Source: Patescibacteria group bacterium
Lineage (GTDB): Bacteria > Patescibacteriota > Gracilibacteria > BD1-5 > UBA2023
Assembly (NCBI GenBank): GCA_036170735.1
Contig: JAVHPT010000028.1
Span: 1-44,384, forward strand
Length of the DNA: 44,384 nt
Direction of reading: 5' to 3'
The translations under genes and the position numbers were made by a program. The notes under the pieces are model-generated. The model made no database searches. It had not been told where the DNA came from and worked only from the letters and a program-made list of their open reading frames with translations. Within the stretch, counting starts at the first letter, position 1; every line of letters starts with the position of its first letter. This document shows, one piece after another, positions 12,709 to 37,721 of this stretch.

Positions 12709-13320
12709 TTAGAATATTTTCTTTACAAGGTCCTTTCTTGCATAAAATGCCCTTGTATTGCTTCCATGTCCAGCTCATTTTGTTCGGGCTTGTACCCATT
12801 TTCCGTCTTTTCACGTTAAGCTTGCCCAACCATACTTAATATATTTCTCACGAATAAAATCATAATCTGCTTTGATTTCATAAATAAGATCTTGTTCTGT
12901 TTGCAAATCAAAGGAAGTTACATCGATAAGTACAGCATCAACTTGATTATGTCCTGTCCAAAGGACAGCACAAAAGACAAGAGACTTCAACTTATTCCAA
13001 CAGTGACTCTTAAAGAATTCTTGTTCTGATAATTCACCCGGATTTATCATAGTAATCGCCATGGTCTCTTTTGGTTTAAGTGAACCTTCTTTCTCCGTGA
13101 AAGAAACTGATTTAAGCTCAAATCAGAGACCATTTGGAGCACGAGAATTGTTATTGGAAAGTCCCGCACACCGCTCAAGAACTAATCATTTCCATCACTT
13201 ATTTTGCTTTCAATTAACAAAAACAGAAATTCAAAATTCATCTGCCAGTTCTCGAAGATCTTTTCAGATATACTTTTGAAGATTTTGAATCGCTATTACG
13301 CGAGTAACCATAGTGGACAT
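12709..13320 (-). CDS. MutH/Sau3AI-family type II restriction endonuclease candidate (203 aa)
   Basis: The frame from ATG 13318-13320 to TAA 12709-12711 is open through several TGA. The translation reads ...KQNKGWGKLVLERCAGLSNNNSRAPNGLGFELKSVSF...KPKETMAITMINP...WVQARTKGAGHGSNTRAFYARKDLVKKIF. This follows the MutH pattern (KGW.G.LLE, G.ELK, PLET, Q.R.K, R.FYL.K). The start lies 5 nt after the methyltransferase stop. Confidence 0.65.
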
Positions 13321-13325
13321 ATTTC

Positions 13326-14117
<792 letters not shown>

Positions 14118-14414
14118 AAAAAGGCGTGTAAAGTATAAACACGCCAAAAGTTACAGTCTATAAAAATGGATCGATCCCACCTTTTGGGTGGGATACGGAA
14201 AGTTTTGGCAAACAAAAAGGAGGATTCGCTCACCTTAATGTTCGCCAAAACTACAACTTCTTCCAATACTTGAAAGCACAGAAGAGAGGAAAGGATTTTG
14301 CAAATCCTCCTACTCACCTTCAAATATAAAAAGAATATGAAGTATGTAATTTTGGCTCGTCTATAGTATAGATTCCGTGGAATAGATCAAGAAGAAAGAT
14401 CTACTTTAAGTTTG

Positions 14415-17498: not shown

Positions 17499-19022
17499 TT
17501 ATTTATTTCGTTTTTTCTTGGAATTAGCTCTCGTAGATGCTCTATTTTTTTCCTTTCCTTTCTTTTCAGGCTTTGTCTCCTTATCTGTTCTGGATCCTAT
17601 CTCTGCACTTGGTTTAGTTTCATCATCGAGATAGTCCTCTCGCGAACCACCTTTTTCTTTTGGCTTGAACATACTCTTTCGTGACTTCATCTCAATATCA
17701 ACTGGCGTTCCTTCAAATCCAAAGAACTCTCGAATCTTGTTCTCGATATAGCGAACATATGAAAAGTGGAAGTGCTCGGCGTTATTTACAGAAATGACAA
17801 ATCTTGGAGGATTCACATCAACCTGAGAACCATAATATATCTTTGGCTTATGAGATTTGCGACTTCCAGTTGGAGCATGCTCATAGGTAATTTGCTCAAG
17901 GAACTTATTGAATATAGCCGTTTTTACTCGTTTATGACGCTCGATCTGGATTTTCTGTGCATGTTCGAGAACGAGATCGATGCGACGATTTTCTATCGCT
18001 GTCGTGAAAACAACTGGAGCATATGAGAGGAAATCAAACTTCTTTGAAAGATAATGCATATACCTATCGAGGATTGTGTCTGTATTCACTCCTGGTTTTG
18101 CAAGAACGATATCCCACTTATTGAGAACGAGGATAATCCCCTTCTTAGCTTTGAGTGCCTCTCCAACAATATGTTCATCTTGGTGAGTGATACCCTCAAA
18201 AGCGTCAATCACTACCGCAACAACATCAGAGCGTTCGATCGAACTATCCGCACGGAGTACACTCCACTGTTCGATATTGGCACTTCCAATCTTCCCTGAA
18301 CGACGGATTCCAGCCGTATCAATAAGGCAGATTTCCTGTTCATTAAAAGTAATAATCGTATCAATCGCATCTCGGGTTGTTCCAGGAAAATCTTTTACGA
18401 TCGAGCGAGTTTCTCATGCAATTGCATTCACAAGAGAAGATTTTCCAACATTTGGACGACCGATGATAGCGAGCTTCAGAATTCCATCATCATTAGACTT
18501 GTTTTCTTGGTAACTAAATCCCTGCAACTTGAGTTCTGCTGCAACTTTTGCCTTCATCTCACTAAAACCACGATTCTGGATAGCAGAAACAGGAATCACA
18601 TCTCCAAGACCAAGAGTAAGAAGATTGTATGACTCAACTGCCCGTTTTGGATTATCCGCTTTATTGGCTATAATAAGAACTGGTTTTCGTGAACGACGAA
18701 GTTTTTTAACGATAAATTCATCGAATTCTGTAATCTTATCATATTCAAGAACGAGTAAAATCAGATCCGAACGACCGATTGCCTCATCTACACGAGCTCG
18801 AACATCCACAAGAAGTGTCTCATCATCAGCACTCACAATACCACCACTATCCGAGAGAATATAGGAAATATCGTTTTCTATATCATCGATGTGATATTCG
18901 ATGATGTCTCGAGTCGTATTCTCAATATCTGAGACGATCGCAATCCGATGGCCAGAAAGCGCATTAAAAATACTGGATTTTCCGACATTTGGACGACCGA
19001 TAATGGTAACATGAGGAAACAT
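17499..19022 (-). CDS. der: Ribosome-associated GTPase Der/EngA (507 aa) with a basic C-terminal tail
   Basis: It has two GTPase domains (IIGRPNVGKSSIFNAL and IIGRPNVGKSSLVNAIA-G-ETRS, the G encoded by TGA 18414-16) and a KH-like domain. It ends in a Lys/Glu-rich tail ...KEKGGSREDYLDD...KKGKEKNRASTRANSKKKRNK. Confidence 0.93.
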
Positions 19023-19077: not shown

Positions 19078-22000
19078 TTACTTTGCGGTATAGAAGAAGT
19101 CAATCTTATACCATACTTTTGCCACTGGAGTTCCTACTGAGAGAACTGAGATGAGCATATATCCATCTTGATATCCATACCCGAGAGTGACATCTTTCCC
19201 AAGAGCGTATATATTTCCATCTCGTCCGATAGCGGCTAGTGGTTGATACAGATTGTCTGTAATATACATTCACCCTGAAATCGACGGATCTGTGGAAGTT
19301 GCGGGTACAACACGATACAGGTCATCTGGTGTTATGATCACTTTTCCTGTTCCTGTGTCTGGATTTTTTGAGGCATCAAGCATCTCCGCATCTGAAGGAA
19401 GGGTGATAAACTCTGAATAGAGCGAACCTGATGAACCCATGATATTAATACGCATTGGATTATCATGGTTTGCTCAGGATACGGATATTGAGAGTCAATT
19501 TGGAAGACTTTGGAATACTCCATGCTCTGACATGGTAACTTTTTTACCTCCAAGAGTGAGCTCAACTCCGTTTCATGTAAAGAACGTTCCACTCATAAAG
19601 GCACCATTGATATTCGTACGAAGAGCTCAGGTGTTTAGGCGGGTAATATCTGTATCTGGTCGAACACGGAAAAGATGAATCGGTTCAAAAGGAATCTTCT
19701 CATCAAGTGTTCCGAGTACGAAGCCAGTACTAGTAACCTCGTTAATCTGGGGAATTGGGGAATATACCTCTATCGTAAGCACTTTTGTCGAGGTGTTGTT
19801 AAATGCATCGGTAACCTTGAGTTCTGCGGTACGCCGGCCAATAACATCAAATGAACCAAGTATGAGAGAATCGCCCGTGATCTGCACTCCACTTCATCAA
19901 AGTGAAAAATCATCATCAACTATGCTATCCTCATTCGTATCCACCGTAATATCTGGATCAACGATGACCGAGTAGGTATTCGTCTCCGTGATGAAGTCCT
20001 TGAGTTTGAGAGTTTTCTCTGTATAGACTGGGATCCTGATACTGTCTGGAATATCAATTACCGGAGCACTATGATCACTTGAAGCCTGTGGTGCAAAGAG
20101 GACAATTCCTGCATGAACACTGGTATCATCTGCGAGATTTCGGAGTCGTGCGGAATAGTACCCATTCGGATAGTCGATATTAAAATTGTAGACGTCACTG
20201 ATACTTCCAAGGTTGAGTATCATATAGTCGGCACCTCCCGCAATCTTTATTGAAGTGCCTTTTACTGGATCTTGGACAGAGAATCATCCTACACTGGAAG
20301 TAAGTTGCATATTATCAAGTACCGGCATTCCTATCATATCATCATTATATGTATATGGTTCGGTTGCAACCGATTCAGTCATGATATACAGTTTTCCATT
20401 TTGGAGTTTTGCTTCTATAGGTTCACTGAATCTGTATCCCTTATGGGCATCAAGTTTGAGGAAACTATCCGCATTTGTCCCTGTATGATAGAGGATAGTA
20501 GCAGGATCATTCCCCGTATAGAGGGTTCTTCCTGGTGAAAGAGCAAAGCTCGTCGCCTCAGTAATAATCGTCATCTTCGGTCATGAGATGACGAATGATG
20601 TGCTATCATAGACTCTATCGAGTGATCGTTTGACAGGGATTACTTGAATACCATGAAAAGATGCAATTGGAGCTGTATTCTCATTGGTAAAAAGATCTAC
20701 TATTCTCTTTGGAGTTACTGTTTCATCATGAGTTCAGATATTGACAACATCCCACTCAAGATACCGATCAAAGAATTCCATGCGCCATGCCTGTTCTTCA
20801 CTCTTCGCACTTGCAAAAGTTACAGAGAGACTTTCTGGTGTATTGAGACTCTCATGAAAAAAGTTTGGAGCACTAGGAATTTCGCCAGTTGGACCGAGAG
20901 TTTTAATAATCACTGTATCATCTTGAATCTTCGTTGGAGTTTGTGTGTGGTTGTATTTGACGTAAATAACACCATCAAGGAGAAAGAGGTAATCTTTATC
21001 TCCATCTTTATCAATATCAACGGTATCTACTTTCTCCTCTCACGTCAGAGAATCAAGATAGTCAAAGAGCCGAGTCTGAATCCCCGAAGGAGTCATGATA
21101 TAGATTCCCTGGAATACTGGAGCATATCATGCTGCAAGGTTCGATGAAGATGAAGGGGATACTGTTGTTGTAGCATCCACAAGACGTCCTATGCGGGCAA
21201 GGATATTCTTCGCTCCTGGAACTGAACTTGGATTGAACGAAGAAGCCTCTGAAATAGTATCTGTTGATTTAGGATTAAATTGGGTGTTGTATATATCTCT
21301 AAGGTTTGTTGTCTTCGAAGAAGGGATATCCGCAACCATCTCCCTTCTTGTTATATCAGGGGTGTATACGAGTTCTTGTGGTTTTTGTTTAAGGAGATCA
21401 ATAACATGCTGCATCTTCGCGGTATCATCATACTCTGCCTGGATATACTTGCGAAGAGAAGTAAACCGATCATTGTTATATGCAAGCAGTTCGCTCGTGA
21501 ACTTGGTTTGGTATTCCTTTGCAGATGGGAGATCCTCAGTGAGAGACTTCCCAAAAGTAGAAGCAAAACCATTTTTGGTAAATTCACTCTGGATAAAACT
21601 GGTAAATTGGTCTCACTCAAGAGTTTCTGTATTTTCATTTTGGAATGTCTCAATAATGTCTTTAAGCGCAGCAATCGATCCTGTGTGTTTATCCAGACTT
21701 GATTGCGCTTTGATATTCACCCTTCCTCATTGTATATTTACGTCTGTTCCGATTTTTCTTGGCATTCATCGGGTAAGATCTGTTGTGAAGTTGTTGATTG
21801 GCTTTACTGCTGCCCGCGCAAACTCGGTGATAAAGTCAGAGCGAAGTTGAAAGTTCACATGAGTGCTCACTCGAATCTCTTTTATTGCTGAGATCGAAAT
21901 ATTTGGGAATTGGATATTGAGGAAATCAAAAGGAGAAACTCCTTGGCGTTCTGTACGTTGTGCTATCACATCTCAAACTTGCCATTCTGGAATGAGATTA

Positions 22001-25000
22001 GTATTCTGGTACCAGCAATACATCGTAGAAATGAGCTTAAAGATCTTGAGAATTCCACTCAGTGCACCGAGTATTTTTGGAATCTTTGGTGGAGGAGGGA
22101 GATTTGGGAGAACAATCTTCGGGAGGGATGGAAAATCCGGAAGGTCTGGAAGATTTGGGATTGCTGGAAGAATCGGGAGGGATGGAAGTGTGATATTGAG
22201 TCAGAAGTTCGGAAGAGAGAGATCTGGAAGGTCTGGAAGCTTGATAGGAGCAAGGTTGAACTGGAATTCTGGAACAGATATATTGATGCCAAGCTGTATA
22301 TCAGAGAGATCGAGGATGATATTTGGCCAACGAGGGAACTTGATAACTGGTATCGATGGAATAATCATGGAAAGAAGTTTGTATTTCCAATATTGTAAGT
22401 TATATCGCTCATTGTGACACACTCCACACTTCGCACTCGTGTCGAAGAAAATATCAATAATTGGTTGCCATCATTCTGCAATTGCCTTGAGAAGTACATA
22501 GAGTTCTGCCCACTTACGGAATCGGATACCATTGTCCTTGATCCATCAGCCTGTGAACTGTGCGATGGTGTTGATATTACAGAGAATCTGTGACATATAC
22601 CGTTGCTTCCATGTCACATATTTCTGGAGTTTTATCGGGAACTGTTTGTATTCTTCTATCCGCTTAAGGTTCTGCGTGATACTGTTGAGAAATCCTCCTG
22701 CATTCAGTGTGATCTTCGCATTGGCACACTCAGTTGCTGATTTTCCTACACACCAATTGCTCATCGCCTGATCTATTTCCCGCTTGTAGTTATTGATTGC
22801 TCGAGCGTATCGATCCAGTTCTCCTGGGAGAATCCAAGGAACATTGATAGCGATATTCCTCGTGGAGAGTGTGATAAATGGGAGTTTTCCGATAAACTTG
22901 TATGCGGCTCGCATCGCGTTGAGTCAAGATGCAACAGTATTGATAACTTTCCCGGCACTTCCATTTAGCTGTTGCTGTTGCCATGCAGCAAAACCCTTTC
23001 CAACTCATGAAGTCACACCAAGTTTTGCTGAAAGTGCCTTCGTGGCATTGGTATTATCATATGCACTTCCCATCTTTGTCTTGAGATTATCATATCATTG
23101 AGAGATCGATGCTGCACTAAACTTCGAGAGGAAGTCTTGAAATGAGCCATCAAACTGGGCATGTTGTCCAAGGGTTGTCGGTGTAAATATAGTAATACTT
23201 GGCGGAGTAAAAAGTGCCTTCACGATCTCATCTCCTTGTCGCTGAAGCCAGTCCATAACAAAATCAGGAAAAGCGGCAATACGCTTATTTTTCACCTTGA
23301 TGATGTTCCCAAGATTGAATGGTTTTGAGCTATCAATCTCAATCCCGATCTCTGTTCCACTCTCTCAAGAACCAATACGAAGAAGTGGTCATCCCGTAAA
23401 ATTCTGGGGTCCACGGCTGGAAAGTTGAGTATAGATAGCATTCCGTCTTGTTGTATTAGGATTTTTTAGGTATGCTATCACATCACTAGTAAAGCTTGCA
23501 TTTTGTATACTTGTTGTCGTTGTTGCTTGCATATTACAACTTCATGCATTCCAAGTATCAGTGATATCTCCAAGTCATGAAACGCCTGTCACATCACCAT
23601 CACCTTCTGAGCCATCTCACTTGCAGAACGGCATTGGTGCAGCAACAACAATACAGTTTCCTCATGGAACAAGAGGAGAGAGTCCTGGTGGTGGAATATA
23701 TCACTTTAGAAGAGCTGGAGCAAGACAAACCGCCATCCCCATTCAAAGAGTAAGAGTTGGTGTTACATATATACGAACCGTATTTGTTGGATCTTGTATT
23801 CAGAGATATCAACCAGCTCAAGGAACAGGCGCTGAACACACTGTACTAAGTCCAAGAGGAGACGCTGGATAAACTGTAGGAATAGGAATACATCCCCAAG
23901 GTCAGTAGAGAGGAAACCCAGTAAGTGATGAAAATTGTGGAATACCTGTAGCTGGTGTAAGTGTTCCAAGTGGTATCCCAAAGAGAGTTGGTACACTTCC
24001 AGGAGCAAGTGGTGCCCAGTTAAGAGGAAAACTCATACACGAACCTCATCCGAATCAGCATCTAAGCCCATTCACGAGATTCCCCGCCATATCACTGAGC
24101 TCCTGAACTGATGAGGTATCAAAGCCAATATCGAACGAATTACCTCCAGAATTCAAGGTTGCATGTATCAATGATCACGATGGTGTTCCAGCATTGCTAT
24201 TTACTAGCTTATCGAGCATTTGTTGTCGATCGTCATGTGTCATGACCGCATCATCTGGTTTCCCATCCCCATTCGTATCCACTGTTTCCATACTATCAGG
24301 AATTCCATTGTGATTGTTGTCGATAATCTGAGAGGCGATACCTTCTGGAAGTTCTGCGGAGGTAAATGTGCGAGATCCCTTCACATAGTCCCGCGCGCCT
24401 GGTCATGATCGCCAGAGAATCATATCAGCTCAACAGGTTGTTGAGTTCTTGAAACCGACATCTCCATAGATATCTGCTCCAGATTCTCACTTTTCAAAAT
24501 CCCCTACCAACATCTCACCATAACTTGCAGGAAGCGCCTTGAGTTCATACGTGATAGTAAGTGTCTGCCCAGCTGGTATATCTCGACCAGCAAAATAGGC
24601 GTCATAGTCCCCTGTTTCAAGATAAGAAAAATCGCGTGTGACGGTTCCATCTCATAAGGTCACTTGATATTTTGTGGTATCTTCCGATGAAAAGATTGCT
24701 GGGATTTTATCAAGATACTCTATATTTTTCGCTGTTTGATTTCAAGTATTTTTGAGTGTAATACTGACTTGTATCCGATCTCATGAGTGAATCGTTGAGT
24801 TTGAGATATCATGGAAACTCCGTGCAACCTCCACTCAAAATGCTGGTGCATACTCGCTTTTTATATACGTATCCATACTTACTCCCGCCGATGAAGTCTC
24901 TGCAGAAGAAAGAGTGGTACCAAATTCATCCGTAATATGAGATAGGTTCTCAGGATTACTTATATCGAGAGGAGATCCATCTCCTGTCGGAAAATCTGGC

Positions 25001-28000
25001 CGAGGGTACTGATAATATACCTCACTCTTTAGTTGTGTATCATCTGTTCCTGTATTAGTTGTTGGAGAAACTCCGAGCGTTCCTGCTGGAATCTGCGGGA
25101 TACTATCCATTTTCAGAGCTCCACCGACTGACTCAGATTGAGCTGAGAGAGTGATTCAAAGATTGGAATCAAGAATCTTCTTTTCAAATACCCCATGTGA
25201 GGCCGTACCATAGAGGACCCCAAGCTCTCCTCATTCAGTGAGATAGACGATATCATCCCGCCCATCAGCATCCATATCATGGATTTTGAACTGGGAGATT
25301 CCCGATGGAACACCACCGCTTACCCCAGGAACCTGTATATCCATCCGCGTAAATTGCCGCTTATTATTATCAATATATATGAGACTTCATGAGTCATTCA
25401 CACCCACTATATCTGCATATCCATCATGGTTAAAATCTCCGATTGAGATTCCCCGATTCACAAGATCAGGAACATAGGAAATGCTCTCCCGAAAGTTAAA
25501 TTTCCCACGATTGTTGAGAAGAAGATCGAGATACCCATCTGTATGAAGTGCTATGAAATCCTCATAACCATCATTATCCATATCACGATGTGCAAAGGAG
25601 GTAACAGGTGATGCTGTTGCTGATGTCAGTTCTGTTCCTATAGTTTTATCGATTCCATCTTGCTCTGTTTCTGGAGCATGTTCATCAACATGGGCAACAG
25701 GATCTCAGAGATTCACAAAAGTAAATGTATGAAACCATTTTGTGGCTTCACCAACAGTATCTCAGGCGGCATAAGAGAGGAGCATGCGATTCTTTCCTTT
25801 CCAACCCACTCATGGAGTCTCAGGAGTAATCGCAAGCGAATCTATGGTATTTGGTCCATTCTTGACTGTATCAATTTCTTTGGTGGAAGAATCCTCTGTA
25901 AACCGATATCAGAAAGTGTCCAAAGAAAATGTACTCTCAGAAAATTGCAAGCTAGAGACACTGGACGTAGCATCAATAGTGGGAGTATTGTAGGTATTCG
26001 CATGGAATGGATCAGCTGCTTTTTCGATTGATTTTTTCTTATCGGTGGCATAGATGAGTTTTCCGATAATTATCCCTCAAGCATTGATATCCATCACAAG
26101 TGCTTTGGAAGAATCCTCTGTATCTGGAGTCAATGAAACTCATGATGCAAGCAAGAGTCGTCAATCTTTCCATACCGTTACAATTGCCTCACTATTTCTC
26201 GATAAGATAAGATTATTTCCAACTACTCACGTCGTAAATCCAGAAGTGTTATCAAGTGCAAGGCGAATATGTCCATCATGAAGCGTGGAGAGGCAAGAAG
26301 AGATGTCGGAGTATATACCTCCCGAATACGAACAAGTATCCAGGAGCGCATTATCCATATGATATACCGCTCGAACAATCGAAGCGTGTGAAACCGTATC
26401 AGTGACGCCAAGTACAGGAAATCATTGTTCAACAGTTATCTTGGGAGTAATAACATTTTCTATTTGACTCGCGGCAGAGAATCCACCTCAAGGGATAATT
26501 GAAAAGAGAGTGGTTGTTTTATATGGAGAATCAAGGAGGGTACTAACTGCAAGGCTCTGTCCAGAACCTGGAAGAGTATTGAAGAGGATATCCTCACCTT
26601 CTCGTAGGAAGTCTCCTCAGGCGAGTACGGTATAACGAGCATTGTAATCGGGAAGAAAATCGAATTGTTCTCGAGCTCATTCGATATACGTCGCATAATA
26701 TGGTATCCCCTTTATACTATGTTCTCAAACAGCATCCGTATAGGTAATAGTTGATGATGCAAGCTCGGGAACCTGCACGATATAATAACCACTTCTCTCT
26801 GGTACTCTATATTCCCCATTTGCAAAGGTTACTATTGTCGGAGATTCGTTATTACGTTTTATGGTTCCAACAAGTGAAGTATGGGTTTGATTGCTATATC
26901 GATCACGAACAGAGAAAACGAGATTTCCTCACTCTTCCTTGTGGGTTATGTACATCGGCATTCATGGAGCAAGAGAGAAGGTAATATCAGGAATCTTCCC
27001 AATACCTGGGATATCTGCAACGAGTTCATGATCTCCTGCACGAGTTCATGGAGTATATGTAAATGATGCGATACCATTTTTAATCGGAATTGCCTCTGAA
27101 TCAAAATACCCAGCATCTTCTGGAAGAGAAAGTGCAGCAACAGAATTGAATCCTGTGAGGATATTACTGGCACCATCGACAATTCGAAGGGTCATAGACA
27201 TGCCAGTTCCTCATACTAATGGGGTATTTGGTCGTGCAAGGATGAGTCGTGCCTCTTGAACAACAGTGATAGTTGATGTTGCATGAATATTGGAATCCGC
27301 AGAAATATTAATAGAAATTGTTCCCGCACTATCTGCACCAAGGAATAGTGGAATCTGTGGCTCCATAGCATCAACGTGGATGGATGTTTTGTGATCTCAA
27401 ACCGCATCGATGATATATCCACCATTCATCTCGATATCGACACTATGAAGGTTTGGGGAAACAAGATTTCAGAGCACATCTTCCAACTCTACCATACCGA
27501 GCGTATTTGATCCGCGTACGATCATGGATGAGATGGGAGTGAAAGATATCTTCGTAAGTGGACCTGACTGAACTGCGAAAGTTATATCACCGCTTTTCCC
27601 GTCTGCATCCTCGAAAAGAAGATGATATACTCATATCTTTTTACTGTATTTTTCTGGAAGGGTAAATTGCGAAGATGAAACCGTGATTCATGACTCTATC
27701 AGAGTGGCATCTACACTATCATAGATATCCATCTTAAGAGGAAATCTTGCAGCAAAAGTATCACCGCTTCCATTTTTGACAAAAAATTGGAATGAAGCTG
27801 GAGAGGTAGAGGTAACATCGATAGACGAATCTCAAGTTGGAAGAACTTCAAGATATTTATCAGAAACATGGATAGGAAACGTATCACCAGTAACAGTATA
27901 AAAGTCCCCTCATGGAAGTGGAATTTTGATGACAGGTTGGAGTGTTACATCAGCAATATTATCTCCACTTGAGAGAACAAATTTTGCTCCAGCATCGTTC

Positions 28001-31000
28001 ATCTCGGAAACACTTGGTGATACTGCAAGATATACCAATCATGGACTCCTCACTGGCGTGAGTGTCACTTCTGTTCCTTCTGGCATGAGGAGACGGGACC
28101 CATTTTTCGTATAGTACACCTGAACATCCAGAACATCATTCATCCCCATACTTGTTCGTGGCATGGCATAAACAATCTTTCCTCATTCGTAAAACTGTTT
28201 TGTGAGGGTAGCACTCGCGCTCGCACTTAGTGGTGGAGCACTTGGAGAATCTTTTCCTAGGGTGCTCGATCCGCAGGAACCCGCAAAAATACGTGGAGGA
28301 AGGAGAGATTGTATCCAACACAGAATTGCCTGTGGCCACTGAAAAAGATTCACTCCATCTGGAGGTCAACATTTATCAGAGTCTCGGTACGGATTATTAT
28401 CACCTCAATCATATGGATCTGAAGTATTGAGTCCGTTGATCTCTGCAAGGTGTATATTATAATCATTTTCAATCTGGTTTACTTCACTATTATCAGTCGA
28501 GGACGGAAAAAATGAAGTCAATCCTAGGTACGCGATCTCATAGGAATCAGAAAGCGTAGGCAACTTTGGTGGACTCGCATATTCTGGTTGCCCAGGATAC
28601 TCATGGGAATATGAAAGCGACGTTTCTATAGCCTGCTTATATTTTACAGTAACATCTGGATTGAGCCAATTCTTTGCCTGAAGCACTTTTACGATAAACT
28701 CATCTGAAACATATTGATTCCAGTCGATAGGAGCGGGTGGCAATATTCATCATGAAAGATATCAATTTGCCTCAATATCCATAGCGGAAAGAGATGTGGA
28801 GTTTTCTTTTGCAAAGATAGTCTGCCACTCGCTATCCGAAACTGTCTTGAGCCACGCACGAACAGAAGCCACGTCCGTTCATGGAGTGTTAAAAAAGTTA
28901 GGATATGTGAGATGAGCGATATTCCCTTTTGGTGTCAAAAATTCAACGTAACGAATCATATCTACTGGAAGCGATGGCGTTACTCCATTCTGTTTTGCAG
29001 CAGCAATCTCATCATCAGTTGGAGATATATGGTGAAGTAGTGATGGTATAGTATGAAATATCTGGTTCTCATATGTTGTTGTGTCAACGGATGATTCTGT
29101 ATCTCCTCCAATCATGATACATGTACGGGCAATCCTTTTTATTACCTGCCCATCAAGAGTGAGCATCCCTGCATAACATGATTTTTTACTATTTTGAGAA
29201 TCATAATCAAGTAGACTTCCTGTAAAAGTTGGAACAACTGGAAGAATATCATGCTGCGTCAGACATGTATATCGTGGCGGATGTGGAACAATCTTAGATC
29301 AGCAAGCTCAAAAAAACATTGATCAAAATCTATTTAACGAAGACCATTCTTTCGGAAATATATCGAAACAGGAGTTCCCAACTCCAATGGCTCATGAGAT
29401 TCATGAATCACCATCTGGGTTAGGATATGAAAACTCATGAGGAGGTGCGAGACCATACTGATATTTTGTATCGAAACAATCCTGAAGAGATGCTGGATCC
29501 ATGCGTGGAGTCTCTTTCATTCCCCCAAGAGAAAATATCGGCTGACTAAATCCTGAAAGGCTTGTTGATCCGGGAACTTCGTCCAAAACGTTTGTAGCAT
29601 CCGAAGATCCTGCCACTCTGAGAATAGAGTTTCATCACCAGTATGACTGCAACCTTGCCTTCCCAGTATTTGGATCAAAACATGAGTATTTGCTATCCCT
29701 ATAGACATTTACGAGTTCTTCTGTGTCATCTTTCATTTTCTGTATCTGCCCTGATACTGACATAACATCATACGCAGTATTTGCCTCTACCAGGACATCA
29801 CGACCAAACTGAGATGTTGCGATATTGGATCAGCGAGCAATAGTACATTGTTCTGGAAGTGTTACTCAGGTACTCATGGTTCCAAAAAAGTAGTTGTTGT
29901 ATATCTGAGGAGCACCAGTAGCTGTTCAGGAAGATAATGGGGAATATTCTGAACCACTGAGAGCTACTCACGTAGACGTTACTACCTGATCAAATATTGG
30001 TATCCTCTTTGCAATCTTTTCATCTATAATAGCCTTATCGATACTTGTTTCTATTACATCATTGGCTGCACGAAGGGTAGAACGGGCAACTTCATCCATG
30101 AGAGTCATGGAAACTGGAGAGAGATCTACATGCACTGTTGAGCCACTCGTATATCTTCCAGCATTGTGAACAAACAACATTGCATCACCAAGTGTTTTCT
30201 CATTGATGATACTCTTGAAGTCTTTTAAAAATGATTGAATAGGAATCTGTGTCTGGATATCAGGCGTCTTCATGATCGTTCCGCTATCAAATCCATCCTC
30301 TCATGGAGCGATACCAAGAGATGCAAGCGTATCATTATTTTCTTTGTTGTTTACCTGATTATATTGTAATAATGCCGTATTGATATCTCCCAGAAGATAC
30401 TTTGTAAACCGCTTATAAGCAACATTCTCGGCATTTTGCATGGAAAGTCCATACTGGAAAAGGCTACGGAGATTTACACTTTTTGACTCATAAAAACCAT
30501 CATAATAGAATACCCTAGGGGGTACCGTAGATGGTGTGAACTTTCCACTCTTCGTATAGAAGTCATGTGTTTTATCGAGGAAGTTCTTGATCTTTGGGAT
30601 ATCTTGACCTATATCCCATGAACGTCAGACAGATGGATTGATAACACCATGCCATATCTCAGCTTCAACATTATTTCGTGTTGCACTCGGTACCGTCTCA
30701 TAGTGAGCAGAACGATCATTGTAAACAAACTGCTTATCAACAAAGTCTACGTACGGATACATGCTCGGGAAATATTCGCCGTCTTGTCCAACCATAGGAA
30801 TAGGAATATTCCCGATCAGCACGGTACCAACAAGATGAGAAACTCAGTTCTGTCCATCTCACTCATAATAAAGTCGCTCATTTTTCGCAGCTATCACTGC
30901 TACAGGAGTATCCTTATCCACAACAAAAAGTGAAACTCGTGTTCAGCCAAGATATCACTCAATATCCTTTGCATACCGTAATACTTCCCCATGATCCGCA

Positions 31001-31170
31001 TTGTACGTCGCTGTATCAACAAAAATCGAGACAATATCCCGATAATTCTCTGGTTGTGCCTCCGCGACATCAAAAAAATCTACTCGAATCGTCTGAGAAA
31101 CAAGTAAACTAAAGATAAGAAATCCCGAAATGTACTTCGACCAAGGAAATGAAAACCGGTTTTTTCGCAT
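19078..31170 (-). CDS. Giant secreted/cell-surface multidomain protein (4,030 aa)
   Basis: About 20 track fragments from 30955-31170 down to 19078-19269 share one frame. I scanned all 202 sequence lines in that frame and found about 95 TGA but no TAA/TAG between ATG 31168-31170 (TAA six codons upstream) and TAA 19078-19080. The N-terminus MRKNRFSFPWSKYISGFLIFSLLVSQ is a signal/anchor. Internal Ig-like, DUF11/CARDB-like, FG-GAP/VCBS and Ca-binding motifs are listed separately. Confidence 0.85.
22066..22245 (-). repeat. Leu-Pro short tandem repeat (coding) within the giant protein
   Basis: Translation: IKLPDLPDLSLPNFGLNITLPSLPILPAIPNLPDLPDFPSLPKIVLPNLPPPPKIPKI. At the DNA level it is an imperfect CTGGAAG/CTTCCAG periodicity. 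Confidence 0.7.
23560..24060 (-). other. Cys/Gly/Pro-rich hydrophobic module within the giant protein
   Basis: Translation: CGFGGGSCMSFPLNWAPLAPGSVPTLFGIPLGTLTPATGIPQFSSLTGFPLYGPWGCIPIPTVYPASPLGLSTVCSAPVPGAGGYLG...MAVCLAPALLKGYIPPPGLSPLVPGGNCIVVAAPMPFCKGDG. It has 8 Cys, a very high P/G content and about 20 TGA codons. I recognised no family. Confidence 0.5.
24247..24327 (-). other. Thrombospondin-type-3-like Ca-binding motifs within the giant protein
   Basis: The translation DNNHNGIPDSMETVDTNGDGKPDD contains tandem DxDxDGxxD motifs. Confidence 0.55.
24540..24790 (-). other. DUF11/CARDB-like adhesion domain within the giant protein
   Basis: Translation: GDRIQVSITLKNTGNQTAKNIEYLDKIPAIFSS...AGQTLTITYELKALP. 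This follows the pattern of the conserved repeat domain found in bacterial surface proteins. Confidence 0.5.
25240..25590 (-). other. FG-GAP/VCBS-like repeats within the giant protein
   Basis: The motifs are DMDNDGYEDFIALHTDG, GDFNHDGYADIVGVNDSG and HDMDADGRDDIVYLTEGG. Each is a D-x-D/N-x-D-G-x-x-D Ca-binding loop spaced as in integrin-alpha/VCBS repeats. Confidence 0.7.
26900..28100 (-). other. Bacterial Ig-like (Big-type) beta-sandwich repeats within the giant protein
   Basis: My translation includes ...IPIKNGIASFTYTPGTRAGDHELVADIPGIGKIPDITF..., ...GDITFAVQSGPLTKISFTP..., ...ADSAGTISINISADSNIHATSTITVV.... These resemble the invasin/intimin-type Ig repeat signature. Boundaries are approximate. 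Confidence 0.5.
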
Positions 31171-31434: not shown

Positions 31435-31510
31435 GGGAATGTAGCTCAGTTGGTAGAGCAGGGCCCTTTTAAGGCCAAGGTCGCGGGTTCGAGCCCCGCC
31501 ATTCCCACCA
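31435..31510 (+). tRNA. tRNA-Lys (anticodon UUU), CCA encoded
   Basis: The sequence GGGAATG-TA-GCTC-AGTTGGTA-GAGC-A-GGGCC-CTTTTAA-GGCCA-AGGTC-GCGGG-TTCGAGC-CCCGC-CATTCCC-A-CCA folds as a cloverleaf. The 7-bp acceptor and 5-bp T stems are perfect, the T-loop is TTCGAGC, and the anticodon TTT is at 31468-31470. There is one G-A mismatch at 27:43. Confidence 0.92.
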
Positions 31511-33139
31511 TATCTCAGAATTTCAGCTCTCTTTTGACGGTTCTTCCGTTAACGGAGAGCTTTTTTGGTTCGATCACTCTGTTTTTCTGGAAAGATTTTT
31601 CGGGTCGAACCGAAGTATAACCTTTGCCTCGATATCCTCTCTGGATCAAGTCTTTTTTATAATAACCTCAACTTTCTCTACAAGGATATTTATAAGCGTT
31701 TGTTTCTGTGTATTGGAAAGATTCTGAATATTCATATCCAGATTCTCTGAAAATGCTTCTAGTTCTCACTTTGTTGCTTCAGCTTTCACTATAACATCAA
31801 GCAGAGCATCAATCTCACATATACGCAAATCGAGAGAATGTCTTTTTTCTACTTCAACATTTACGAGCCTATCTCGTTTCTCTTGGGAATATGTTCCAGC
31901 GAGAAACATTTTTTCAATGGTAAATTCTATATTTTCACTCTCTTCCATTGCTCGATTCTTCTTCTTTCTCTCTTCAAGGAGTTCTCGATAATTGGTGTCA
32001 TTTATTGATTGTTTTCGATATACCTCAAATAGCCTTTCAGGTTGCTTGATAATATCATAAATGTATCAGAGTACATAGCTATCAAGTGCCTCTCAAGCAA
32101 TTTCTGTATTCTTATGCCATACTTCGTTCAGCCAAAACCCTTTTCTTCGATATCCGTGTCACCCTTTAGTTCTTTTATATCCAACAAAGCCCCTTCAGGT
32201 GGCTATATCCGTAAGCTTCCCTGATAAGAGATAGGAATTTGCACCTCATCCTCTCTGTGTATTTTTTGTGATTCTCTCTAGTGCCTTTTGTGCAATCTCG
32301 AATCTAAGTGGATGAATTATTTCTGGAACAGGAATAGGTATTGGTTCAATTTCTCCTTTTTCATTTTTTGGGTTATATATTGCATTACCTATGTAGGAAG
32401 TATCTTCGAGCATATCACGGACATACGTACCATACCATTTTGTAAATTTTGACTTCTTCACACCTCATATTCATTTAGCAACTTTATTATCGTTGAGCAT
32501 CTGTGCAATTCCATTGAGTGACATTCCATCTATACAGGCATCAAATACTCGACGAACCCATTCAGCCTCAACTTCAATGATACGTAAACCTTTTGTTATC
32601 TTGCCTGTCATTTGGATTTTTTCGTATCAGAATGGTGGAGAACTGATCACGAAATTACCCCTTCGAGCGGAAGCATTTTTTCATTCACGTGTCCGCATCT
32701 TAATTGTCTCTCTTTCAAATTCGGCTAATGCTCCAAAAATTTGGAAGGTTAACTTTCCAATGGGTCAAGAGAAATCAATATTTTCCTTGAGCGAGAAAAA
32801 TCCTACCTTATGAGTCTGAAGTTCCTCAAATGAAGCTAACAGGTGCGAAAGGTTTCGGGATAGCCGATCTATTTTCCAAACTGCTATAATATCAAACTTT
32901 CCTGCCTTAGCATCTTGCATCATACGCTTATATGCAGGACGATTTAGGTCTGATCCTGTATAGCCATTATCGACATACTCCCAACTGGTATCGTGAGTCC
33001 ACTCGTGGTGTTCTCATCTGTACTTCATCATTCACTGAAGATCATTCAGCTGATAATCAAGTCAGAATCAGTCCTTTGCTTGCTCATCAGTTGATACACG
33101 AGTATAGAAAGCGATACGAAATTTTTTATTATTTTCCAT
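31469..33139 (-). CDS. Large serine recombinase (up to 556 aa as an open frame; true C-terminus uncertain)
   Basis: From ATG 33137-33139 the translation is MENNKKFRIAFYTRVSTDEQAKDGFGLDYQ... (catalytic Ser motif; two Gly are TGA), ...IIAVWKIDRLSRNLSHL..., ...FGALAEFERETIKMRTREG..., then a recombinase domain (WYGTYVRDMLEDTSYIGNAIYN) and a coiled-coil tail. The frame has no TAA/TAG until 31469-31471, which lies antisense inside the tRNA-Lys anticodon loop. Confidence 0.85.
31525..31566 (+). terminator. Rho-independent terminator after tRNA-Lys
   Basis: AGCTCTC (31525-31531) pairs with GAGAGCT (31555-31561), with an inner ACGG/CCGT stem, followed by TTTTTT. Confidence 0.65.
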
Positions 33140-33218
33140 AGGTTATTTTTATGGTAAGAAACTCTAAACAGTATATCAAAAAGTATTACGAAATAAAATG
33201 AAAATTTATACTGAAGGT

Positions 33219-33252
33219 TAAAAAAATAAGAGATCCCTATTGGGGATCTCTT
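33219..33252 (-). terminator. Rho-independent terminator ending the minus-strand cargo operon
   Basis: A 10-bp perfect stem AAGAGATCCC/GGGATCTCTT (33228-33237 / 33243-33252) is followed on the minus strand by A-TTTTTTT. Confidence 0.7.
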
Positions 33253-33267
33253 GGAAATATCAAAAAA

Positions 33268-33417
33268 CTAAGCTCAAAGCAAACAACGTAGTAGATTCTT
33301 ATCTATTTCTTCAGACTCTGAGGAAGATAAGTTCTTAAACTCCACCGAAAAAGTGATAGTACCTTTTCTTTTTGAATTTTGAGGGATTACGTATGTATTT
33401 GGTTGGAGTTTTTTCAC
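33268..33417 (-). CDS. Possible small protein (49 aa, GTG start)
   Basis: An open frame ends at TAG 33268-33270, 16 nt before the terminator hairpin. It has no ATG start and no family. Confidence 0.25.
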
Positions 33418-33468
33418 AGTGTCTACAAAGGAATTAAATCTTTGAAAACACTGTACCCGAAGGAAGGA

Positions 33469-34530
33469 CTAAATCGGATTAAAACTTGGACTATCCTCTA
33501 CTATAACAAGATATTTTTGATTGAAAGATATTTTTCAGCCAGCTATATCAAAGAGATCTGGATATCACTTTTCTGCAAGCTTACGATTAATATTTCAGAA
33601 TGTATTGGAGAGATATTTATATTCTCAGCTTTCCATATCTTCGAGATCCGAAAACTCTGGATCTTCGATAATATCTTGAAATGTAATATTTTTCTGATCT
33701 ATCTGATCAAACACAAAGTCTATGATTCTTGCTTGTTGGTTCTTAAATATAACTTCCACGCCATCAATCCAAAGAGTTTTATTTGCAAAATCATAGTAGA
33801 GCTTAACTACCTTTGCATCCTTAATAAGATCTATGCTTCCCATTATCTTTACTCGGAAAGATTTACGAATCTCATCATCATACGCCTGATCCTCAACAAA
33901 CTGATCTTTCTCTACTTCTCAAGAAAGAATAATAACTTCTCGTCTTTCGAGAAATAAGAGAAGTGGAAAGAAATCAAAGGTTTCTCAAAATTCTGCTTCT
34001 CGAACACTGAACCACTGATCCACAAATGCTTTCTTGTAGGTAGAGAGGTGATTAATCATTTCTTTTAACTGCACACTCACAGGATAAAGAATCTCTCTTG
34101 GGGAAGAGAAATTATTATGCCACCATCGAAGCAAATAGGTATCAATAATTTTATTGATCTTATCTATACGGATTTTTAGGTAGTAGATGCGTGTAATATA
34201 TCCTTCTGAAAGAGCGTGTCGGATATATCCCAATTCAGTCTGATCTGCATTAAAAATAGTAGTCTTCTCTGCTTCTCCATTGGTACTTCCCTCTGGTATG
34301 ATATAGGCAGTAATTTCTGTGATAATACCTGCTCGCATCAATAGTAATAATGAATCCAGAAAAATACAATCACTTCTCATATCTCCTAATTTTGGTAATA
34401 TGTGAGCTTCTCCAGAATTTATTCCATTTCATCCTCAGTTTTTACCTTTTGAATACTCTCTAAGATACCACATTAAATAAAGTGGATAACTCCTGAAGCA
34501 AAATATCTTTTTTTCTATTAATTTGTCCAT
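33469..34530 (-). CDS. Hypothetical protein, possible C-terminal winged-helix DNA-binding domain (303-353 aa)
   Basis: Track fragments 33625-33843 and 33985-34380 are in one frame, open from 34560 to TAG 33469-33471. The C-terminal ...QQARIIDFVFDQIDQKNITFQDII...NTFGNINRKLAEKGYPDLFDIAGGKISF resembles OmpR/PhoB-type winged helices. The start is ATG 34530 or 34380. Confidence 0.5.
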
Positions 34531-34823
34531 AAGGACAGGGTGAGTGGTAAGTGATTGTATTTATAATCATAGGGCAGAAAAACACAAGAGAGAGGCTTGC
34601 ATAAAAGAAGTTTTTGTATACTATACGGGGGCTAAAATGTCTCAGATTTTTATTCCAATTAATGGAAGTAAAGGGCGATTTATTATCGTCCAGCCCTTTT
34701 TCCTTTTCTTAATTGGAATCAGAGACGTTTTAGTGAACAGGACAAATAGGTCGCCCTTTTTTTCTTGTTTGCTAAAACTCTCCTGAAATATTCTAGCGTT
34801 ATTTACCCATAACGCTTTTTTAT

Positions 34824-35486
34824 ATGAAAACTTGTCCATATTGTTCCGAGCAGATTCAAGATTCTGCTAAAAAATGTAGGTTTTGTGGAGAATTTCTCTC
34901 AGAAACATTTTCTGATAATTCAGAAAAAATAACTTCCGAAACATATCCACAAAAAAACATAAAAAATAGCTGGAAAAAGACCTTTCATTGGACTTTTGGC
35001 ATCGGAGTAGCAGGAGTAATATCAGGTATCGCCAATATCTGAAAATGAACTGATGGGATGATTTCTTTCTATACTGGTATATGAGTAATTCTTGCTTCCA
35101 TAGGCTACTATTTTATTCAAAAAAGATATACAAGTGGTTGAAAATATTCAATATGAGAAGGAGCTATAGGGGCTTTACTTATTATTTCAACACTACCATT
35201 CTTTTCTGATAAGACTTTTTCAACAAATCCAATCCTATTTATAGGAATACCTCTTTTTCTTTCATACTATACTTACCCTTTCCTAAATAGAAAAATCACC
35301 AATAAGTGGTGACGAGTTTTTGCAAAAATATGAACAGTGATAGTGCTCTTATTTATAACAGGGATCATTGGAGTATATGCAATAAAGTTACTATGATGAA
35401 ACTCTGAATGAGCTCATAGTATGAATATAAAGGATCGAGCCGAATTTGAAGCGACTATGAAAGAAGTTGGTATACCTGTACGATAA
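34824..35486 (+). CDS. Zinc-ribbon domain membrane protein (220 aa)
   Basis: The N-terminus MKTCPYCSEQIQDSAKKCRFCGEF has CxxC...CxxC. The frame continues past TGA 35040-35042 through about 9 more TGA and 4-5 hydrophobic helices to TAA 35484-35486. Confidence 0.6.
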
Positions 35487-35509
35487 TTTTTATTCATTAC
35501 TTTTCTCTT

Positions 35510-35863
35510 ATGATACCTCAGGCATTTTACTGACTCTTATTATCCAGTTTTATAGGTTCTTACGCTATTTCCGCACTTACTTTCGCCCTCACGGGGTGAG
35601 AGCTACAGTTATGGTGGATCTTCATCTTTATCATAATTTTCCCTATTATCTGGAAAATAGGAAAAAAATACTTTCCACAGGAAAACAAAACAGAATGGAA
35701 TAAGATCAAGAAATGGTTTTGGTTAGCCATAATTTTTGGAAATATCCTTATGTTTCTTGTGATTCTTATTTGTCTTGCCATTGGATGAGACGCCCTTATG
35801 CAGAAATGAAAATACCCAATACCTACATCTGGAACTACTAACACTAATTTTGCTGACTTCTAA
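35510..35863 (+). CDS. Small membrane protein (117 aa)
   Basis: The frame from ATG 35510 to TAA 35861-35863 is open through 5 TGA. It has three hydrophobic segments (LLLSSFIGSYAISALTFAL, LWWIFIFIIIFPII, WFWLAIIFGNILMFLVILICLAI). Confidence 0.5.
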
Positions 35864-35905
35864 AACTATGGAAATTCTCGTTATTTTAGTATTTATCATC
35901 CTCGG

Positions 35906-36700
35906 ATGAGGATATTGGATCATCTCAGAAGAAAAAACCTCGCTATGAGCAAAAGAATGGAGAATATGGAGGATTTTCTTGCAGGAAGCTATAAATATTC
36001 CTTTGAAGTAGGAATGTCTGTCGATTGGCACAAGTTTTTTTCTCAAATCAATCCACAAAAGTCAGAAAAAGAAGTATCTGATTTTATAGAACCCTTTCGA
36101 AAAGATCCTGATAGTTTGCTATCTATCAATCAAATCGAATGGGAATTTAATACGGACAATATATACAACTTTTCCACACTAGGTAGAAAAATCTGGAGAC
36201 ATAATCAGCCAACAGAAGAAGTTCAAAAGAATGTATCCTATGAGTGACTCGGGTATCACGGAACACTTTTTTGAGATCAAAAGTCTTATGAAAAACATAT
36301 TCATCTTATTCAGGATTTTTTCCAGTATCAAAATATTCCTGAGGAAGTGACAACTAGTTTTCGTCCATTTCATTTTATCCTACACCCAGAACAGATAGGC
36401 TGGTATTCTCAGGAGAAGAGTATAGATCCACTTGAGACAAGCCTCCTAAGTAGGATGAGTGACGAAACTTTTTCAGAAATCCCATTTTGAACTTTTATTG
36501 TGACTTGTATAGAGCAAAGACATAACACCTTTGACCCAGATAAGATTATCAATAGAGTTCGTCAGAAGAGATCAGCATACACTTATGATATTTCATATTT
36601 TGATAAAATATGAGGTTTTCAGGATTCTTTTGAAATGAAATCAGGAGCAGTAAAGCTCTCAGTGCATATAGATTTCTTCAATGCAGATACGCCATTCTAA
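35906..36700 (+). CDS. Hypothetical protein (about 264 aa)
   Basis: Track ORF 35906-36247 continues in frame through 4 TGA to TAA 36698-36700. I recognised no family. The start is uncertain, because an overlapping 49-codon TM-like ORF begins at 35868. Confidence 0.5.
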
Positions 36701-37236
36701 TAATGGTGTTTTACTGCCTGTCTCGGTTTTCTGATATATTTCCCTGTACGAAAATCTGGATCTGTTTTCTGGAGTACATACATTGTAGCTTTTGGATCTC
36801 ACTTTTCCAAAAGAAGCACGAGAGACATATGAGCGAGATAGGATAACATATGTCTTTCTACAATTCGTGCAATTTCGTTGCGAAACTCGGGATTTTTCTT
36901 CTGGAAACGATAAAATCCAGCAGGTGAAAAACCGCATACAGGAGCTGTTTCCTCTATATTGAATCCTTCCGATAAAAGACAGAGGAATTTCGAGAGTTTT
37001 TCTGGAGTGATTTCACTCGGTCTCCCTGCTCAGTGAACAGGTGAGTATATGAAAGAATGTGTACTAAGAACAAGTTTATAGAAAGAGAGTTTGAGTCTTG
37101 CGAATTCCTCTTCTGAGATTTTAACTCTCTTCTTTTTCACTTTTGAGAAAGTAGGAAGTTTTCAGAAAATCTCTTCAAGATCCCTTCTTGGATCATCTGA
37201 GAAGATAGGATTCTCTAAAAAAGTGGGAATTATCAT
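36697..37236 (-). CDS. HTH DNA-binding protein resembling phage terminase small subunits (179 aa)
   Basis: The frame from ATG 37234-37236 to TAG 36697-36699 is open. The translation ...ITPEKLSKFLCLLSEGFNIEETAPVCGFSPAGFYRFQKKNPEFRNEIARIVE... matches the HTH pattern (G.s...a....Gis..tfy.W......F) seen in TerS-type proteins. Confidence 0.45.
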
Positions 37237-37252
37237 AGTTACTCTTTGGGTC

Positions 37253-37702
37253 TTACAGGTTCGCAACCGTACTATGTACCACTATGCCAGATTGAGCCAC
37301 CTTCTCAATATCCATCGGGAGACCCCGAAAAACTGCGTCATCAGATGGAGAATTTATATCAAGATAAGGACGCACAGCAATAAGAAGATATGATGCATTA
37401 TCAATCTGGTAATCTGCAAGAATCTCGGGGAATTTAATTTGCCCAAACTGTTTTCATTCTCACATAGAAAATACATAGTCTCGATATGAATCCCGTTTTT
37501 CTTCAGTATCAAATTTCAATACAAACCACATATTTGTTCCTCCTGTCGGAATAAGGGATATATTATTTATTACTGTAATGGGTTTATGGAGCATTTCTAC
37601 AGTTTCAAGGTATCAAAGTCACCCATCTATAATATTGTTTTTATATACTCAAAACTGTATATTATTGATTGTACGTGATTGTGGAGAATTGATTGTTGAC
37701 AT
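37253..37702 (-). CDS. Hypothetical protein (92-149 aa depending on start)
   Basis: The frame ends at TAA 37253-37255. Candidate starts are ATG 37702, 37591 and 37531. I recognised no family. Confidence 0.4.
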
Positions 37703-37721
37703 AGTGTTATTATTATACGAA

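Follow-up and report, generated by a model that had tools for sequence, protein, structure and literature searches.

The locus and its coding sequence

The 44,384-nucleotide stretch of DNA analyzed here in full (the window) is contig JAVHPT010000028.1 of assembly GCA_036170735.1, from a Patescibacteria group bacterium of the Gracilibacteria, and its central feature is a single minus-strand gene for a very large protein, referred to below as the giant protein:

19078..31170, minus strand: complete coding sequence of the giant protein; 4,030 amino acids (aa) in genetic code 25; ATG at 31170, TAA at 19078-19080; 95 in-frame TGA codons

An initial interpretation of the letters (the sequence-only reading) had proposed that one 12.1-kb open reading frame (ORF) lies hidden here, and this was borne out: the frame runs through 4,030 sense codons from ATG to TAA, includes the 95 TGA codons, and contains no internal TAA or TAG. 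Over the same span, the remaining two minus frames contain 92 and 113 TAA or TAG codons, and at the rates of these frames the probability that 4,030 codons are free of both is approximately 4e-41 to 2e-50. The start appears to be well placed because the open frame extends only 5 codons upstream of the ATG and the homologues share the same N-terminus (MRKN.F.FS...). Under table 11, only 1,576 of the 4,030 residues fall within in-frame ORFs of 60 aa or more, of which there are 19, in agreement with the "about 20 fragments" reported previously; the accompanying claim of a common phase for all long minus-strand fragments was inexact, as the other frames hold 15 of the 34 ORFs of at least 60 aa, the longest of 107 aa. 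The GC content is even along the gene, and the product is an acidic protein of approximately 440 kDa (448 D+E vs 305 K+R residues). A promoter and terminator scan at the gene gave a result no better than that obtained with shuffled sequences.

Everywhere in the window TGA acts as a sense codon, and gene-sized ORFs appear only when it is read through; the giant gene contains 95 in-frame TGA codons, and all other gene-sized ORFs contain between 0 and 24. The earlier assignment of UGA to glycine holds: TGA encodes the two invariant glycines in the Walker A motif of FtsH (gPPgCGKT, lower-case g denoting TGA), and likewise the glycines of the DnaJ motif YYSTLgV and of the methyltransferase motif DPFSgSGTT. 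Code 4, in which UGA specifies tryptophan, is ruled out for the window by the TGA codons at these invariant-glycine motifs. Among the homologues of the giant protein, the share of glycine plus tryptophan is 40% where the giant gene has TGA, 39% where it has GGN and 4% at all other positions, tryptophan being counted together with glycine because some pipelines translated the homologues with code 4. The genes of the window are read in code 25, as in Gracilibacteria and Absconditabacteria.

Orthologues and collinearity

A query with the N-terminal 494 aa of the giant protein retrieved 45 unnamed protein fragments, with identity of up to 60%. Two contigs that encode such fragments show no stop in the read-through frame before the retrieved DNA runs out (at least 3,957 and at least 3,826 codons), and the translations are collinear with the giant protein over aa 7-3853 (39% identity) and aa 8-3813 (43%). 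A scan for the N-terminal domain over one genome per GTDB species found it in 99 stretches, mostly from metagenome-assembled genomes (MAGs) of 'Candidatus Gracilibacteria', with some labeled Peribacteria or Peregrinibacteria; the best identity was 62%, and most genomes contributed a single locus. That the best relatives are Ca. Gracilibacteria MAGs agrees with the previously suggested origin of the contig in a Gracilibacteria-type organism belonging to the Candidate Phyla Radiation (CPR).

Of the 60 related loci examined, 50 have a frame without a stop for over 3,700 codons, as far as the retrieved sequence extends, and 3 others reach one after 3,766-3,838 codons; the number of in-frame TGA codons across related loci ranges from 0 to 225. 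At the lower end of this range are relatives that use the standard code and carry a Peregrinibacteria label where they are named. In one of these (L069) the gene is an uninterrupted ORF of 3,596 aa that contains no TGA and ends with TAA, and in five others (L072, L073, L076, L077, L084) it is uninterrupted over more than 3,700 aa with 0-1 TGA. In 66 of 84 loci the same strand carries both the N-terminal domain and, 6.1-10.3 kb downstream of it (mostly 6.1-8.1 kb), the conserved core described below, and the spacing in the window, 6.9 kb or approximately 2,300 aa, is within the common range. The single giant product claimed by the sequence-only reading is supported by these end-to-end collinear orthologues, known from at least 66 species genomes that are mostly Ca. 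Gracilibacteria, and by the intact ORF of the standard-code relatives, and the recovery of the same collinear gene in independent assemblies from many samples answers the concern that the contig might be mis-joined. Given the collinear orthologues, the intact standard-code ORFs and the even GC content, there is effectively no room for a mis-join, a pseudogene or a row of separate genes: the locus is a single genuine gene, collinear across a class-level lineage that comprises Gracilibacteria and standard-code relatives. Its downstream neighbor is conserved as well:

17499..19022, minus strand: der/engA GTPase gene, directly downstream of the giant gene; also present in related loci L022, L023, L031 and L033

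Domain architecture of the giant protein

The following regions were delineated, from the N-terminus to the C-terminus:

31057..31170, minus strand: putative Sec signal peptide, aa 1-38; basic n-region MRKNRFSFPWSK, hydrophobic core ISGFLIFSLLV, then AEA followed by Q; read from the sequence
29911..31038, minus strand: family-defining N-terminal domain, aa 45-420; near-invariant PYxDF, EIWHG and NAGRY; α/β sandwich plus helical subdomain
28171..29910, minus strand: Cys-containing region, aa 421-1000; 11 of the 28 Cys of the protein; conserved block at about aa 700-750; no family match
26671..28170, minus strand: probable Ig-like β-sandwich stalk, aa 1001-1500; by homologues, no direct Pfam match
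25171..25593, minus strand: FG-GAP/VCBS (integrin-alpha-like) repeats, aa 1860-2000; DxDxDG Ca-type loops at 1863, 1912 and 1965
24541..24807, minus strand: DUF11/TIGR01451-like β-sandwich, sub-threshold, aa 2122-2210; Pfam E 2.4e-4, 21.8 vs 24.6 bits
24253..24324, minus strand: paired D-x-N/D-x-N/D-G loops (DNNHNG, DTNGDG), aa 2283-2306; from a motif scan, with a weak FG-GAP_3 match (E 0.039)
23521..24123, minus strand: core part 1, aa 2350-2550; Gly/Pro/Cys-rich, nearly uncharged; PLNWAPLAPG, TPTLT, PGGNCIV; invariant Cys and Pro columns
21751..22938, minus strand: core part 2, aa 2745-3140; long helices, invariant CxxC (CGVCHNER), FPKWPDIILD hairpin, LPxLP/PPPPK proline run, amphipathic helix, LTER
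20971..21063, minus strand: isolated conserved DxDxDG loop (DTVDIDKDGDKDYLF), aa 3370-3400; a motif within the conserved block aa 3351-3400
19081..20970, minus strand: C-terminal region without recognizable domain, aa 3401-4030; no SLH, LPXTG or RTX

The 11-residue window of highest hydropathy in the whole protein (2.56) is at aa 14-24, and no 19-residue window anywhere in it reaches a Kyte-Doolittle mean of 1.6. The "signal/anchor helix" described previously is not supported in its anchor part, the hydrophobic stretch being only about 11-15 residues long; judged from its sequence, the segment aa 1-38 agrees better with a Sec signal peptide that is cleaved off than with an anchor.

The N-terminal domain that follows contains the PYxDF, EIWHG and NAGRY motifs of the family and has a per-position identity to 26 homologues of 0.37-0.45, compared with values mostly between 0.15 and 0.25 along the giant protein. 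Structure models were made with AlphaFold2 (AF2) for two homologues, P0001 (N-terminus, 50% identical) and P0192 (49% identical, corresponding to aa 2509-3262). In the P0001 model, residues 25-370 mostly have a predicted local distance difference test score (pLDDT) above 70 and form an α/β sandwich followed by a helical subdomain. A Foldseek search of PDB with the domain returned nothing below E 0.05, only generic flavodoxin-like or periplasmic-binding-protein-like sandwiches, and none of 33 members gave a Pfam match in this domain even at E up to 10, in accord with the earlier description of the domain as one of unknown family. A relationship to Peptidase C25 or gingipains was considered and rejected, as the 33 members gave no C25 match (E <=10) and no gingipain is among the top Foldseek matches in PDB.

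The modules between this domain and the core are of types found in adhesins and differ in how directly they can be recognized. The FG-GAP/VCBS repeats are recovered with confidence, by Pfam FG-GAP_3 at E 1e-13 (52.1 bits vs a cutoff of 26.9) in two stretches at aa 1863-1990, and FG-GAP_3 is present in 9 of the 11 family members that were scanned against Pfam. A profile of 12 full-length members compared with PDB sequences matches 8w20, over the FG-GAP block only; the giant protein searched as a single sequence against PDB sequences matches nothing. Ig-like repeats, part of the earlier description, are seen through homologues and give no direct match in the giant protein. Its aa 1203-1393 align with residues 1120-1317 of a Peregrinibacteria homologue, P0096 (E 1.5e-5), in which Pfam places Glyco_hydro2_C5 at 1125-1221; among the 11 members Glyco_hydro2_C5 occurs in 4, and Big_1 and Invasin_D3, whose positions were not mapped, occur in 2 each, with no match to either in the window protein at E up to 1. 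On this basis the region aa 1001-1500 is probably an Ig-like β-sandwich. The DUF11 domain that had been named is likewise present only as a sub-threshold match, both in Pfam and in NCBIfam, where TIGR01451 (18.8 vs 24 bits) is the sole match of the giant protein. The TSP3-like calcium sites are not supported: Pfam finds no TSP3_bac match, the D-x-[DN]-x-[DN]-G loops are of the FG-GAP type, and among the family members scanned TSP3 occurs only in the C-terminal extension of P0096. Comparison of the giant protein with itself by BLAST revealed no internal repeats.

The conserved core reaches identities of 0.28-0.46 at aa 2351-2550 and of 0.42-0.55 at aa 2851-3100, the maximum of the family. It opens with approximately 150 residues that carry almost no charge and abound in Gly, Pro and Cys, and its signature, composed of the invariant CxxC, FPKWPD, the proline run to PPPP(K) and LTER, is present in the window protein; in the alignment the second motif reads FP(K/R)WP(D/N)IILD and the proline run ends in LPPPPKIP. 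This run is encoded by a weak 18-nucleotide tandem array at 22119-22188, the sole array detected by the program TRF. The two most hydrophobic 19-residue segments of the protein are both located in the core, at aa 2469-2487 (1.54) and aa 3033-3051 (1.45), where the usual threshold for a transmembrane (TM) segment is 1.6. The AF2 model of P0192 (mean pLDDT 59.9) contains a helix of about 76 residues and two β-hairpins; a Foldseek search with it gave nothing in PDB (best E 1.9) or BFVD (best E 0.3) beyond weak matches to SMC/Rad50 coiled coils. The core has no match in Pfam, NCBIfam or PDB sequences, and a profile search of a set of 5.8 billion proteins retrieved only unnamed fragments of the same family. 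By every test applied here, the core is a new module. The idea that it is a fusogen or pore-former received no structural support, the model yielding only coiled-coil noise in the same PDB and BFVD searches.

Beyond the core, aa 3401-4030 align with the part of the 4,699-aa homologue P0096 that precedes its S-layer homology (SLH) domain. The SLH domain itself is absent from the window protein by Pfam and present in 2 of 11 relatives. No LPXTG sorting signal is found at the C-terminus, the only LP.[TSA]G being at aa 1533, and a C-terminal TM segment is likewise absent; the protein also contains no GGxGxD motif of RTX proteins secreted by type I secretion systems (T1SS) and no autotransporter domain. 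The sequence-only reading could put a name to no motif in the last 1,600 aa or so, and none was recovered from Pfam, NCBIfam, PDB sequences and the profile, or, for part of the region, Foldseek; its remark that most of the giant sequence is uncharacterized also holds.

The family in public databases

A profile of the N-terminal domain retrieved 789 clusters at 50% identity (E <=1e-3), 392 of them at E <=1e-30. Many family representatives are full-length, with 3,400-5,860 aa and the N-terminal domain always at residues ~2-600, and the conserved core is present in all 76 full-length representatives (76/76) that pass the length filter on the core alignment. The public giant homologues contain the N-terminal domain, the FG-GAP block and the conserved core in the same order as the window protein, which is only 24-29% identical to the full-length representatives examined. 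One of them, MDD2487531.1 ('hypothetical protein', 4,224 aa, Ca. Gracilibacteria), aligns in a single segment over 4,019 of the 4,030 residues with 28% identity. Further homologues in NCBI are MCD5380636.1 ('VCBS repeat-containing protein', 4,004 aa) and MBI2464194.1 ('S-layer homology domain-containing protein', 4,699 aa, Peregrinibacteria), and two relatives are labeled 'uncharacterized repeat protein (TIGR01451 family)' at the Joint Genome Institute (JGI). Unlike the Peregrinibacteria homologue, the window protein has no C-terminal SLH/TSP3 extension.

Many full-length public entries (for example P0057, P0063, P0069 and P0059) contain 6-7% Trp and about 1% Gly, the result of applying code 4 where code 25 was needed, and carry an error at each UGA. 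Pipelines that use table 11 split the genes of the family into unnamed fragments. As a result of this fragmentation and of the tryptophan at UGA in many full-length entries, the family is poorly represented in protein resources. The literature searched contains no description of the giant family as such, that is, of its N-terminal domain, its core and its lineage-wide collinearity. All the same, the novelty implied by the sequence-only reading was overrated: NCBI already has full-length members, and the literature has dealt with giant surface proteins from this lineage (PMC8080830, PMC13059738, PMC6851277). The family is already visible in databases and is of a kind discussed for these bacteria, the giant CPR surface proteins, while being uncharacterized.

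Comparison with other giant surface proteins

The ten longest proteins of Vampirococcus lugosii have 1,392-4,163 aa; the longest is a 'hypothetical protein', three are alpha-2-macroglobulins, and the giants have been inferred to form a fibrous surface and to mediate attachment to the host (PMC8080830). Large proteins with adhesion domains have been described in Strigamonas methylophilicida (PMC13059738), and giant surface proteins of the lineage are also discussed in PMC6851277. With these giants of Absconditabacteria predators (VAMP_16_20 of Vampirococcus lugosii, 4,163 aa, and those of Strigamonas) the window protein shares the lineage group, code 25 and the size class, the likeness being one of description; integrin and DUF11 domains have been reported in them, and their function, too, is only inferred. 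In Vampirococcus lugosii, the hypothetical protein of ~4.1 kaa occurs alongside alpha-2-macroglobulins of ~1.9-2.4 kaa, and the same pairing is seen in the window (PMC8080830). The alpha-2-macroglobulin gene of the window (5189-11005, minus strand) encodes 1,938 aa in code 25 with 23 in-frame TGA codons and comprises MG2, bait-region, A2M, TED and bMG10 domains with the thioester motif GCIEQ. VCBS-repeat proteins of groundwater Gracilibacteria have been detected in the Wallender Born metaproteome (PMC11452946) and could not be linked to the giant family by sequence.

Fibrillar adhesins, such as those with intimin/invasin Big_1 Ig-like stalks or integrin-like FG-GAP/VCBS repeats, have in common with the window protein a signal peptide (predicted here), probable β-sandwich modules, FG-GAP calcium repeats, an acidic composition and great length. 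Unlike them, it contains no detectable tandem-repeat stalk, LPXTG motif, RTX/T1SS signal or autotransporter domain, and its best conserved parts, as well as most of its length, have no counterpart in those proteins.

In the archaeal DPANN lineage Nanohaloarchaeota, SPEARE is reportedly a giant surface protein of an ultra-small episymbiont that has been proposed to act in host contact. The resemblance is one of analogy only: no sequence relationship was found, and the protease and nuclease domains that define SPEARE are absent from the window protein.

Possible functions

Little is known of the means by which episymbionts of the CPR/Patescibacteria attach to their hosts and exploit them. The giant gene occupies 12 kb in a CPR-type genome that is presumably small, and has been kept collinear from Gracilibacteria to standard-code relatives of the Peregrinibacteria type. 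This cost and this retention, together with the finding that neither of the two best conserved parts belongs to a known fold or family, make the family a concrete and widely distributed candidate for a cell-contact apparatus, worth structural study and localization in the few cultivable relatives; the conserved core without known fold is the most interesting remainder.

With a probability of roughly 0.55, we favor the interpretation that the giant protein is a secreted, envelope-associated fibrillar adhesin or scaffold of an episymbiont. The features that lead us to this interpretation are the FG-GAP_3 repeats in most members, the Ig-like and SLH domains in some, the signal-peptide-like N-terminus and the lack of any segment of TM strength; it is also in line with the VCBS and S-layer names of public homologues and with the surface location inferred for the Vampirococcus lugosii giants (PMC8080830). 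The Pfam matches in the giant protein and in family members agree with the earlier suggestion of an exported protein with adhesin-type modules, and a role in host attachment is plausible and a reasonable reading of such an architecture. In this scheme, the signal peptide would be cleaved and the C-terminal part would then hold the protein at the wall; some relatives anchor by SLH domains, and the means used by the window protein may differ. The Ig-like, FG-GAP (putative propeller) and DUF11 modules would form a Ca2+-stabilized stalk or fiber on the cell surface, and the conserved N-terminal domain would sit distally, where it could contact a partner or the surface of a host cell. Consistent with such a structural role, no enzymatic, toxin, lytic, peptidase, pore-forming or secretion-system domain was found in the giant protein, nor any enzymatic domain in the 11 members.

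Several observations weigh against an adhesin. No adhesive 'head' domain of known type was found in the giant protein, and none of the wall or membrane anchors that were looked for in it (SLH, LPXTG, C-terminal TM). The Ig-like assignment is indirect, the DUF11 match is sub-threshold, and the structure models are of homologues about 50% identical and have moderate confidence only. Moreover, collinear conservation, a fixed der neighbor and a strongly conserved core are features more usual in a housekeeping structural machine than in an adhesin that is host-specific and evolves fast.

This last point leads to the strongest competing explanation, an essential envelope scaffold or S-layer-like structural protein in which the core and the N-terminal domain mediate self-assembly or attachment to the cell's own wall. 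Collinearity across Gracilibacteria and standard-code relatives is what such a protein would be expected to show, and it is accompanied by the presence of der downstream in all 4 related loci with a visible 3' end (4/4), SLH domains in 2 of 11 relatives, a single locus in most genomes, and 42-55% identity in the core as opposed to about 20% elsewhere. The window protein, however, has no SLH or other wall-binding domain, modules of the FG-GAP, Ig-like and DUF11 types are characteristic of adhesins, and S-layer proteins are usually far smaller. We regard the scaffold as a less probable alternative to the adhesin.

More ambitiously, the core of approximately 750 aa (aa ~2350-3140) might be a previously unseen module that contacts or inserts into the envelope of a partner cell, which would make the family a lineage-wide docking or feeding device of Gracilibacteria and relatives of the Peregrinibacteria and possibly the Absconditabacteria type; we consider this improbable. 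A further alternative is a host-attack or bridging machine, in which insertion of the hydrophobic Gly/Pro/Cys-rich segment and the long helices into the envelope of the host, or fusion with it, would provide a feeding conduit. The location of both hydrophobic peaks in the core, its nearly uncharged stretch of ~150 aa with invariant Cys and the ~76-residue helix of the model could be taken in this sense, and predatory relatives do consume the cytoplasm of their hosts (PMC8080830). This argument is drawn from composition alone, though, and both peaks fall short of the TM threshold, no pore-former or fusogen was found by Foldseek in PDB or BFVD, and toxin, lytic and peptidase domains are missing; accordingly, we give the host-attack machine only a slim chance. 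Finally, the notion of an artefact, be it a chimeric contig, pseudogene or set of separate genes joined only by reading through TGA, can draw on the many fragments produced by table-11 gene callers and on early in-frame TAA or TAG codons in a few related loci (L022, L057, L075, L080, L081), but is practically eliminated by the minute chance of so long an open frame, the glycine-like TGA columns, the independent assemblies, the even GC content and the single TGA-free ORF of standard-code relatives (L069; also L076, L077 and L084).

Neighboring genes and other features of the window

Directly upstream of the giant gene, a tRNA-Lys(UUU) gene (31435-31510, plus strand) is overlapped by the 3' end of an ORF for a large serine recombinase (31469-33139, minus strand), and the following ~6 kb (window positions 32000-38000) have a lower GC content of 0.34-0.35. 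This region may be an integrative element inserted at the tRNA gene. Counter to this possibility, a relative (L005) has at the same position both the recombinase (68% identity) and a counterpart (61%) of the ORF at 37722-39509; the recombinase also occupies it in L039. The ORF at 37722-39509 (minus strand) encodes 595 aa with 24 in-frame TGA codons and has no Pfam match.

An ORF on the plus strand (11264-12691) encodes a MutY-like HhH-GPD glycosylase and contains two copies, 606 nucleotides apart, of a ~150-nucleotide sequence (11390-11541 and 11996-12147). The copies are 78-85% identical, each with a hairpin-like inverted repeat, have no Rfam match, and are in frame, resulting in Cys/Gly-rich inserts in the protein. 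At 12709-14147 (minus strand) a MutH/Sau3AI-like endonuclease adjoins an N6/N4 DNA methyltransferase, and the two are probably a type II restriction-modification pair. Finally, the 325-aa ORF at 3666-4643 (minus strand) looks like a truncated or very reduced PriA, as it contains only the Cys-rich zinc-ribbon region of that protein and has nrdR immediately upstream.

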